A stretch of 21,866 bases of DNA from an uncultured virus (IMG/VR IMGVR_UViG_3300008113_000157) (taxonomy: Duplodnaviria; Heunggongvirae; Uroviricota; Caudoviricetes), in IMG/VR virus record IMGVR_UViG_3300008113_000157; one strand, written 5' to 3'. The notes beneath the pieces were generated by a model. It was given only the letters and a program-made list of their open reading frames with translations, did not search any database and was not told where the DNA came from. Both the position numbers and the translations under genes were made by a program. Shown in pieces: positions 6,653 through 7,960 of the stretch. Each line of letters begins with the position of its first letter. Positions within the stretch are counted from its first letter, which is position 1.

Positions 6653-6903
6653 CTAGTCCAGTGCTCAAGCCTGTGGCAGTTGCAGCAAAGCGGAATACAC
6701 TTCTCAATCTCTTGCTCAACCCTGCTCCAAGCGTAACCATGGTTAACCATGGATGAGATGTTATTGTCCTTGTCACCTATGTGGTGGAACTCAAGGACAC
6801 GATGATCATTCAGCCCACACTTCTTGCACTGCAAAGTCTTCTTGTACTCCAGAAGCTTTTTTCGATTCTTATCGATACGTTTTTTAGCAGTGCCCCAGGT
6901 CAC
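6649..6903 (-). CDS. small HNH endonuclease
   Basis: CKKCG...LEFHH...NNIS...CIPLCCNCHRLEH: Zn-binding CxxC pairs plus the HNH core. Confidence 0.8.
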   Translation of the reverse strand: MTWGTAKKRIDKNRKKLLEYKKTLQCKKCGLNDHRVLEFHHIGDKDNNISSMVNHGYAWSRVEQEIEKCIPLCCNCHRLEHWTS

Positions 6904-6943
6904 GTCTAGTTTTTGTGCACGTGTGCATATAATTTATCAGTTT

Positions 6944-6968
6944 TCTCAATAAACGTGGTTTATTGAGA
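6944..6968. repeat. perfect 11-bp inverted repeat (hairpin/operator) just 3' of the RNA array
   Basis: TCTCAATAAAC-gtg-GTTTATTGAGA. Confidence 0.7.
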
Positions 6969-6977
6969 TTCTTAATA

Positions 6978-7053
6978 GCACCTGGGTAGGAGTCGAACCT
7001 ACATCGTCCTGCAGCGGCAGTAACCGTCTTATCCAATTAGCTCGGACCAGGTG
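6978..7053 (-). ncRNA. tRNA-like RNA without a canonical anticodon arm
   Basis: Minus strand CACCTGG...GTAGG-TTCGACT-CCTAC-CCAGGTG-C gives a perfect 7-bp acceptor stem and T arm, with a D-loop-like AATTGGATA. The anticodon arm is only CTGC-CGCT-GCAG. Confidence 0.65.
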
Positions 7054-7054
7054 A

Positions 7055-7125
7055 TCGGGATGGAAGGTACTGCCCCTTCTCCTTTGCGTCCCAAACGCAA
7101 TGTGATACTTTTCTACTACATCCCG
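7055..7125 (-). tRNA. tRNA-Pro(UGG), atypical T- and D-loops
   Basis: CGGGATG/CATCCCG acceptor stem (C1:G72, A73 = Pro identity), anticodon arm TTGCG-TT TGG GA-CGCAA, T stem GAAGG/CCTTC with loop GGCAGTA. No encoded CCA. Confidence 0.8.
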
Positions 7126-7129
7126 AGTG

Positions 7130-7213
7130 ACCCCCTGGTTTGTGCATCATCCTGAAAACCATTTTGTTGACGTCAACAAAATGGTCTACGTATAGGAGCT
7201 AAGCATAAGGGGT
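7130..7213 (-). ncRNA. putative structured RNA (long rod-like hairpin) with a 28-bp perfect palindrome
   Basis: Nested pairings CCCCT/AGGGG, TGC/GCA and TCCT/AGGA enclose ACCATTTTGTTGAC|GTCAACAAAATGGT (7158-7185). No ORF in the track. Confidence 0.45.
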
Positions 7214-7220
7214 GTTGTTA

Positions 7221-7303
7221 ATAGATGGATGCAGTGTAACTGGCGTACCGACAATCGGGCTGTGAGTTAACCAGGCGTATCCAGACAGTGACTGCACCTC
7301 TAT
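7221..7303 (-). ncRNA. putative structured RNA (three-way junction)
   Basis: ATAGAGG-TGCAGT / ACTGCA-TCCATCTAT closing stem, CTGG/CCAG stem, inner hairpins CTG..CAG and CCGA-TTG-TCGG. Confidence 0.45.
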
Positions 7304-7330
7304 CTTGGGCTCTCCTTCTAGGCTATCTGC

Positions 7331-7960
7331 CTAACGAGTCACCCCCCACTTGGGGGCGTGTTCCACATCAAAGTAGCGTGTTGATACCTTGAAGTCTGGT
7401 GTCTTGAGGTTGTGATAACTCAATGATGGATCAACCATGCGACACCGATTGTTGGGATAAGCGCCAATTTGACCGTTGTCCAAAGCCACAATATTATGGG
7501 ATTTGTGCTCATCAGGAAACTCCGAAAAGTAAAAATCAGGTTCGTTCCGATGAGGATGATAATTGTCTACGGTAAATAAATATGTGCCCTTCATTACACC
7601 TGCGCTTCGTGTCAGGATTTCAAAACCCATGTTGAAGATTAAATTCTTTTCAACGATCGTAAGTCCATGGTCAAACCCATTCCAGAACTGAAGGTCTGTC
7701 AACTCCAAGTCAGGTGTAGGTTCTTTGGGTTTGTCTGGATAGTCTGAGTCCCATGCAAGAAACGCACTGATAGGAAGCTTGTCATACAACGCTCCGTACT
7801 CAGTCAAGTACGCTTCAAAATACAGTGCTCGACCCGTAAGTGATTTACAGGTGACCCAATAGCCAGGTGTGTACTCACCATGTCCTTTCTGAAGGTCGTA
7901 CAGATATTCCTTGCGGACCCATACTTTGATTGGTGGTACGTTGGCAACAAGAGTTGTCAC
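7331..7960 (-). CDS. conserved phage protein of unknown function (common in cyanophages)
   Basis: 209 aa, GTG start. Motifs VRKEYLYDLQKGHGE, GALYDKLPISAF, EHKSHNIVALDNGQ..YPNNR and PDFKV. Confidence 0.8.
   Translation of the reverse strand: MTTLVANVPPIKVWVRKEYLYDLQKGHGEYTPGYWVTCKSLTGRALYFEAYLTEYGALYDKLPISAFLAWDSDYPDKPKEPTPDLELTDLQFWNGFDHGLTIVEKNLIFNMGFEILTRSAGVMKGTYLFTVDNYHPHRNEPDFYFSEFPDEHKSHNIVALDNGQIGAYPNNRCRMVDPSLSYHNLKTPDFKVSTRYFDVEHAPKWGVTR

Follow-up and report, generated by a model that had tools for sequence, protein, structure and literature searches.

The window analysed here is the whole 21,866-nt stretch of IMG/VR record IMGVR_UViG_3300008113_000157, from an uncultured virus of the Caudoviricetes. 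Its 24 ORFs include a primase/helicase, an AdoMet decarboxylase, a glycosyltransferase and a lysin-like protein, and all the words sampled from it are shared with a 61.8-kb viral contig (G001), the nearest record. On the minus strand, an auxiliary gene is followed by a non-coding module, an RNA of the abiF type, a CACU spacer, a proline tRNA and, after a single base (U, position 7054) that separates the discriminator of this tRNA from the next unit, a tRNA-shaped element, which is the subject of this study (Table 1). Beyond the element come an A/U-rich hairpin and a partial HNH endonuclease ORF. The sequencing runs containing the array stretch are mostly labelled freshwater or lake.

Table 1. 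Features of the array and its flanks in the window, with the long-arm relatives of the element found in other contigs.
Feature	Position	Strand	Characteristics
HNH endonuclease-like ORF, 84 aa	6649..6903	minus	PHROGs phrog_2255, E 3.8e-20
A/U-rich hairpin, 11 bp	6944..6968	.	directly 3' of the element
Anticodon-less tRNA-shaped RNA gene (element)	6978..7053	minus	76 nt
Element, discriminator C	6978	minus	read from sequence
Element, acceptor stem	7053-7047 with 6985-6979	minus	CACCUGG/CCAGGUG, 7/7 pairs
Element, D arm	7045-7024	minus	CCG..CT / AG..CGG enclosing loop AATTGGATA
Element, capped hairpin in place of anticodon arm	7023-7007	minus	core CTGC-CGCT-GCAG
Element, variable region, 4 nt	7006-7003	minus	read from sequence
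Element, T arm	7002-6986	minus	GUAGG-UUCGACU-CCUAC
tRNA-Pro(UGG)	7055..7125	minus	Rfam tRNA 42.3 bits; sole above-threshold tRNA
CACU spacer	7129-7126	minus	between abiF-type RNA and tRNA-Pro
abiF-type RNA motif	7130..7212	minus	outer stem CCCCUU/AGGGGG, inner UGC/GCA, 3' bulge CAAAC
Palindromic hairpin, perfect, 24 nt	7160..7183	.	CATTTTGTTGACGTCAACAAAATG; inside apical insertion of abiF-type RNA
Non-coding module	7213..7344	minus	contains hairpin GGC-AGAUA-GCC; kept in relatives
Auxiliary gene	7331..7960	minus	annotated 'PurM' in S-EIVl; phrog_3704 profile positions 1-200 of 223
Long-arm element, L180	626-726	minus	found with model R1
Long-arm element, L190	998-1099	plus	found with model R1
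Long-arm element, L201	148-249	minus	found with model R1

The DNA of the auxiliary gene is 81.5% identical to that of 'PurM' of S-EIVl, an arctic-lake phage of Synechococcus. In the window the 3' end of the gene is shortened by about 23-25 codons and fused directly to the non-coding module (7331-7345); G001 and other relatives, of which L002 and L007 were compared, keep the end of the gene, with a hairpin before the module. The module itself has no Rfam match, and contigs from the RNA libraries of four studies span it. Its hairpin GGC-AGAUA-GCC recurs in relatives, where it is either free or takes the 'anticodon' position of further tRNA look-alikes (for instance L280 and L181). At the opposite end, the HNH-like ORF covers only positions 96-171 of the 211 of the phrog_2255 profile and has no Pfam match, and the hairpin preceding it, conserved in window-type relatives, is terminator-like only on the plus strand.

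The tRNA-Pro of the window is noncanonical, with a D loop lacking GG and a T loop reading GGCAGUA, and it escapes ARAGORN, which finds no tRNA genes in the whole window. The same slot holds a canonical tRNA-Pro (67-71 bits) in other relatives; the degenerate allele recurs in several contigs. Mobile-looking insertions were also observed in the array, upstream of the element in L021 and L096, and in L170 and L176 together with L033. One insert, about 0.4 kb long and with an ORF, interrupts tRNA-Pro at its anticodon loop and could possibly be an intron, and an insert of about 0.5 kb is preceded by a stray copy of the first seven bases of the element. A further conserved non-coding module stands upstream of the element in L009, L015, L016, L018, L020, L023, L025, L032 and others; it starts with GGGTGCAACAAGGAACGTTGCA, ends with GGACATCCTTGCCC, has a variable middle, and gave no Rfam match at E<=1.

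All the features that the preliminary description had listed for the element are present when the minus strand is read: the perfect acceptor stem, the T loop, the D loop with GG, the C discriminator and the short central hairpin were each confirmed in the sequence. Like a canonical tRNA (RF00005), the element has a 7-bp acceptor stem, a 5-bp T stem with a 7-nt UUCGAnU loop, a length of 76 nt, a D loop containing GG (AAUUGGAUA) and a site in a tightly spaced phage tRNA cluster. It differs from a canonical tRNA in that the D loop sits inside a stem extended at its base by 2-3 pairs, and in that a 5-bp stem with a 7-nt anticodon loop is found in none of the 37 sequence variants described below. 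Two extra pairs (U31-A47 and U32.G46) and a bulged A33 lengthen the central hairpin, so that the arm measures 17 nt, as a normal anticodon arm does, and folds into 6 bp, a bulge and a 4-nt loop. No CCA is encoded.

Standard tRNA finders fail on this molecule. In each of 22 related loci ARAGORN passed over the element, and the Rfam tRNA model (RF00005) gave 18.7 bits (E 0.44), under its gathering score of 29, with an alignment that spans the acceptor and T arms only. The single-sequence fold is weakly informative (z = -1.9), and uninformative for the middle of the molecule.

Other readings of the fold were tried and rejected. Several alternative registers yielding a 7-nt loop were drawn by hand, and none gave a 5-bp stem; an alternative CGG/CCG pairing is broken in 75-nt variants; and a class II tRNA with the hairpin as its variable arm was rejected because a 76-nt molecule has no room for a further arm. 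As to a mimic of the YrlA or Y RNA type, no such family appeared among the Rfam matches at E<=10 in positions 6800-7500, and the helix joining the two ends of the element is the acceptor stem, unlike the long Ro-binding stem of YrlA and Y RNAs.

Homologues were retrieved by three pattern scans of viral contigs, giving 22, 32 and 33 stretches, and one of metagenome contigs, giving 70 stretches, with overlap between the two collections. From both collections, 159 copies of the element were recovered, representing 37 distinct sequences. It should be noted that four parts were held constant in the patterns (D loop, ACGG in the D-arm stem, CGATG and T loop), so that their invariance is partly built in; in the last pattern the central arm could vary over its full length, as could the acceptor stem, the T stem and the inner D stem.

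A canonical anticodon arm (5-bp stem, 7-nt loop, U33, purine at 37) was found in none of the 37 distinct variants. Throughout, the remodelled arm has 6-7 bp, one bulged base (mostly A) and a loop of 3-5 nt reading CGCU, CGUU, CGAU, UGCU, GCU, ACU or CGAUU; the exception is L063, with a different 6-bp stem and a 7-nt loop, UAGCAUG, that lacks U33. In four variants the central arm gains one whole extra pair (CCUGC/GCAGG).

The five-helix structure was tested on the alignment of the 37 variants (A1). Standard pairs fill 98.9% of its 846 cells, compared with 36-43% when the partners are slid by 1-3 columns; 10 of the 23 pairs have changed on both sides, and no shuffle out of 500 matched the observed covariation score. 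Pairing over the 37 variants reaches 99.2% in the acceptor stem, where double changes occur at 5-77 (UA/CG) and 6-76 (GC/AU), and 99.5% in the T stem, where they occur at 59-73 and 60-72. The remodelled arm shows them at 32-53 (UA/CG, in nine variants) and 40-48 (GC/AU, in two). The D stem is composed of two covarying inner pairs, both with double changes (CG/AU and UA/CG), an A/G-A internal loop and 2-3 outer pairs. RNAalifold, unaided, finds the acceptor stem, the T stem and the central hairpin; its choice for the D region is a helix formed by invariant bases, and this does not account for the inner pairs with their perfect covariation. In tRNA numbering, C1-G72 is invariant, pairs 2-71, 3-70, 5-68 and 6-67 vary, and the discriminator is C in 35 of the 37 variants. 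A T follows the discriminator directly in all 37, and the base at position -1 is U, C or A.

A covariance model built from alignment A1 (R1) scores the window element at 104.7 bits and finds a single copy per genome in G001, G003 and G004. It also picks up four diverged copies. That of L198 is 75 nt long, with a shorter D loop. The other three (L180, L190 and L201) measure 101-102 nt and keep the tRNA frame, with an arm of 43 nt in which an inner hairpin of 6 bp covaries and bears a GACG loop; this arm looks like a displayed payload.

A decaying tRNA pseudogene, or an assembly error without function, could be suspected from the rejection of the element by tRNA finders, from the degenerate look of the neighbouring tRNA-Pro allele and from the mobile HNH genes that disrupt the array region in relatives. 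However, every one of the 159 copies and 37 variants, which come from many independent assemblies, has the same remodelled arm, and compensatory changes have occurred in every helix, the remodelled one included. Decay or error is therefore highly improbable, and a one-off indel is rejected on the same grounds. The view put forward in the preliminary description, that of a non-decoding mimic under selection rather than a product of random decay, is thus supported, in that the arm covaries and is conserved among the homologues. The same description had named a normal tRNA in close relatives as the observation that would speak for a pseudogene, and none of the 37 distinct homologues has a normal anticodon arm.

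The unit that precedes tRNA-Pro belongs to the abiF type. abiF RNA has been described as the antitoxin of the HEPN RNase AbiF in a type III toxin-antitoxin and anti-phage system, and AbiF as related to the ancestor of Cas13 (PMC12737573, PMC12373285, PMC13064643). The copy in the window carries a 54-nt insertion in the apical loop, and Rfam does not report it, either at the gathering score of the abiF RNA family (RF03085; 37) or at E<=10. Two short-loop relatives, L012 (1460-1496) and L008 (1387-1423), match RF03085 at 52.2 and 46.6 bits, and the two halves of the window motif, CCCCUUAUGC and GAUGCACAAACCAGGGGGU, align to these copies with the outer 6-bp stem, the inner 3-bp stem and the CAAA bulge present. 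The outer stem covaries across phage copies (CCCCUC is paired with GAGGGG in 6/6 variants), and the apical inserts of these copies measure 8, 20, 53-55 or 70 nt. Folding of 7200..7126 gave z = -2.99. The palindrome CATTTTGTTGACGTCAACAAAATG inside the insertion gave chance-level matches only, to a microRNA family and to unrelated phages.

No Abi_2 gene (PF07751) was found in five phage records (G001, G002, G003, G004 and S-EIVl, two of them rated complete), nor an Abi_2 protein among the 24 ORFs of the window, and the phage motif is therefore considered toxin-less. S-EIVl lacks both the abiF RNA and the element, and neither the element nor the array had a match at E<=0.01 in the 'phages' collection of cultured phages. 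Pseudo-ToxI is described as a phage RNA antitoxin mimic acting against type III ToxIN (PMC3475682), and by analogy the toxin-less abiF-type RNA may be an antitoxin mimic. In both cases a phage has a copy of a type III antitoxin RNA but no toxin gene to go with it; the abiF-type RNA differs in being of the RF03085 type, a single copy rather than a repeat array, and followed by tRNA-shaped units instead of a terminator. According to a review, a hairpin at phage sk1's cos site inhibits AbiF without resembling the AbiF ncRNA (PMC13064643). An anti-defence RNA probably stands at the head of the operon. In the literature searched, we found neither a phage-borne abiF RNA nor a link between abiF RNA and tRNA-like genes. 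A canonical-loop abiF motif, TTTT and a tRNA look-alike whose 'anticodon' hairpin is GGCAGAUAGCC were also observed in L280, a 2.2-kb contig in a freshwater actinobacterial MAG bin; the contig is probably a piece of phage DNA that ended up in this bin.

A contrast between bacterial and phage abiF RNAs lies in what follows the closing stem. In bacteria, at least four T come directly after it in 73 of the 77 distinct copies of the core pattern among the matches listed (mostly Bacteroidales, none titled cyanobacterium), and the abiF gene comes after this T run; the closing stem and the run together make an intrinsic terminator. In contrast, no T run follows the motif in any of 40 phage copies. 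In 33 of these, a tRNA-shaped unit, defined as a 7-bp acceptor plus a 5-bp T arm, begins exactly at +1 after TC(A/G)CT, against 42 of 4000 random positions in the same loci at which such a unit can be drawn. Four of the remaining seven copies lead on into a further non-coding module that is conserved, two are followed by shorter units that bear a T arm and do not fit the tRNA shape, and one has none visible. The unit after the phage abiF motif may be a canonical tRNA (Pro, but also Ala and Gly, as judged by eye from the anticodon loops), the degenerate tRNA-Pro, a member of a family with a RACAA pentaloop, or the element; since these units are interchangeable, it is their shape that appears to matter.

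The RACAA family is a second group of anticodon-less look-alikes, with a 3-bp covarying stem (GCA/UGC, CCC/GGG or UCC/GGA) under the pentaloop. Members occur in L005, L008, L017, L019 and L022 (about 73 nt before the element), and also in L015, L020 and L025, and ARAGORN labels them 'tRNA-??? (ca)' or 'tRNA-Cys (aca)'.

The element, too, is tightly joined to what lies upstream of it. Of the 68 distinct contexts classed upstream of it, 47 have a tRNA-shaped unit whose end lies 0-3 nt before the element, and in six the element abuts an abiF-type motif; the other 15 include two in which the 3' half of tRNA-Pro stands behind an ORF-bearing insertion and one with a tRNA whose CCA is encoded. In L022, L106 and L122 the element stands by itself, preceded by an AT-rich stretch in which a -10-like box was recognized by eye; a promoter scan of L022 gave TTAACA-18-TACAAT, with about as many hits as chance gives. 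It should also be noted that no element was found within 800 nt in 15 of the 40 phage loci bearing abiF, even with the four diverged copies found by R1 counted.

Part of the region 6900-7400 is contained in six metatranscriptome runs, four of which, from four studies, were compared as assembled contigs, which for this reason cannot show RNA ends. The front half of the array is present in these RNA libraries: contigs of X15, X17 and X19 span 7126/7135/7143 to 7336/7344, that is, the non-coding module and the abiF-type RNA, and some run on into the versions of the neighbouring units found in relatives. The predicted cut at 7125|7126 lies about 10-18 nt beyond the ends of the contigs stopping at 7135-7143, and this is a weak hint of processing there. 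No contig of X15, X17 or X19 covers the element or tRNA-Pro, although missing cover in assembled contigs is not evidence. One contig of X18 covers 6954-7060, joined to the canonical tRNA-Pro of a relative; since this run also covers the flanking gene, DNA carry-over is possible.

These data can be read in terms of the enzymes that mature tRNAs. RNase P, RNase Z and the CCA-adding enzyme recognize the stack of acceptor and T arms, the T loop and the GG of the D loop, and tight junctions and a U after the discriminator are also among the features they use. Because the element retains these features, we infer that it is excised as a tRNA would be. A cut at its 5' end (7053|7054) would trim the preceding unit, which is tRNA-Pro here and the abiF-type RNA itself in some relatives, while the compact tRNA fold of the element would cap the 3' end of the array. 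With its anticodon arm remodelled into a closed 6-bp hairpin, the element would keep the dimensions of a tRNA but could not decode. It would then be a functional, non-decoding tRNA-shaped gene and the final unit of a phage small-RNA operon, in a lineage where tRNA-shaped units would have replaced the intrinsic terminator of the bacterial abiF antitoxin RNAs.

The retention of processing features, the loss of decoding and the replacement of terminators by tRNA-shaped units make a tRNA-type handle, serving processing by RNase P/Z as well as stability, the best-supported role, to which we give slightly less than an even chance. On this reading, the element probably helps to cut and stabilize the RNAs of the array rather than to make protein. 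The structure of the element, its conservation, the architecture of the array and the contrast between terminators and tRNA-shaped units are direct observations. The cleavages, the addition of CCA and the benefit to the operon are what this handle would be expected to entail. Among the roles suggested in the preliminary description, that of a processing signal fits the comparative anatomy best, given the junctions in 47 and 6 of the 68 contexts, with the cleavage step predicted from that anatomy.

Tailored comparisons can be made with known tRNA-like RNAs. MALAT1 mascRNA, the tRNA-like/miRNA units of gammaherpesvirus 68, mitochondrial tRNA punctuation and the t-elements of Haloferax are all tRNA-like processing elements. 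The element is tRNA-shaped, non-decoding and directly abuts another RNA, the traits by which processing or punctuation elements are recognized, and like mascRNA and the t-elements it stands against a functional RNA whose end tRNA enzymes can define. Unlike them, it is borne by a phage, closes a multi-unit array at its 3' end, has an antitoxin-type partner, and its cleavage is a prediction. Stable tRNA-like RNAs are also known from phage tRNA regions, such as species 1 and 2 of T4 and RNA1-3 of T5. These resemble the element as non-decoding, tRNA-related small RNAs beside phage tRNA genes; the element belongs to another family and host environment, is linked to an abiF-type RNA, and is without a match in the collection of cultured phages at the threshold given above.

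Some observations argue against a handle, or for more than a handle. The element is dispensable for the abiF-type RNA, considering the 15 of 40 loci without it, and a mere handle would not need a conserved and covarying 'anticodon' hairpin. The covarying arm, the payloads of the long-arm copies, the stand-alone copies and the loci without an element argue together for something beyond a handle. It is conceivable that the element acts in trans, as a full-size look-alike that can be neither cleaved nor decoded and that titrates a host factor of tRNA-directed defence or presents its bulged hairpin, on a tRNA frame, to a partner protein; the operon would then contain two anti-defence RNAs, the copy of the AbiF antitoxin and the element. 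We regard this as possible, although on balance doubtful.

Several facts favour such a trans-acting mimic. The operon starts with an orphan abiF-type RNA, which parallels the pseudo-ToxI described in phage (PMC3475682), and a decoy gains some plausibility from this probable anti-defence RNA. The capped arm holds its length of 17 nt, covaries and conserves its bulge, the long-arm variants have a different conserved hairpin in the same frame, the anticodon-less RACAA family occurs in the same arrays, and stand-alone, promoter-proximal copies exist. Phage tRNAs, moreover, are reported to counter tRNA-cleaving defences (PMC10264068, PMC11464382, PMC11555353). On the other hand, AbiF is described as a non-specific single-stranded RNA nuclease, not a tRNA nuclease (PMC12737573), and the mimic has no known target. 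The letters of the loop vary among variants, which argues against sequence-specific recognition of the loop. Furthermore, anticodon nucleases mostly read the anticodon loop, which the element does not have. Nor is there any sign of a network of operators, as the window has the hairpin a single time and one copy of the element was found per genome.

Two more specific ideas about the hairpin were set aside. A mimic of a CRISPR repeat, to which the hairpin may bear a likeness, agrees poorly with the variable loop letters, and a repeated operator does not agree with the single occurrence in the window (0.19 expected by chance) and the single copy of the element in three genomes. The molecule does resemble engineered tRNA scaffolds, in which a tRNA body carries a foreign hairpin in place of the anticodon arm, and the relatives with a 43-nt insert are a case in point; unlike those scaffolds it is natural and conserved, and the insert in the window is a minimal capped hairpin. 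A wider proposal would see in the whole array (7344..6978) an anti-defence RNA operon, in which tRNA processing would free the copy of the AbiF antitoxin and the look-alikes (the element and the RACAA family) would be trans-acting, either as full-size tRNA decoys that resist cleavage or as natural scaffolds presenting short hairpins, and would neutralise tRNA-directed or HEPN-type nucleases of the host. We consider it unlikely.

The intact acceptor stem, the invariant C1-G72 and the discriminator C in 35 of 37 variants might also suit a private amino-acid carrier, that is, a CCA-tailed molecule charged by a synthetase indifferent to the anticodon, and serving as donor to a non-ribosomal transferase. 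However, families of the Fem, L/F-transferase and cyclodipeptide-synthase-like types are absent from the 24 ORFs of the window, and acceptor pairs 2-71, 3-70, 5-68 and 6-67 vary. By the tRNA identity rules, the element has no G3:U70, no long variable arm and no -1 G with C73, and it is not known to contain any anticodon-independent identity set. The lack of G3:U70 also led to the rejection of a tmRNA-like or Ala-type identity. The amino-acid donor of the preliminary description therefore finds no support, there being no tRNA-dependent transferase among the window ORFs, and a carrier role is very unlikely.

Phage tRNA genes are now being re-read as tools of counter-defence. The lineage described here goes further, with tRNA-shaped genes that have given up decoding, are still under structural selection, and are coupled to an AbiF antitoxin copy that lacks its toxin; AbiF itself is regarded as the ancestor of Cas13. 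The standard tRNA finders miss the element and the odd tRNA-Pro alike, which should serve as a warning for annotation. If our reading is correct, this would be a natural case of tRNA-guided 3'-end formation taking the place of a terminator for an antitoxin-type RNA; it would also provide the first candidate, within the literature searched, for a phage-borne mimic of abiF RNA, and a compact natural design of the 'tRNA scaffold' kind.
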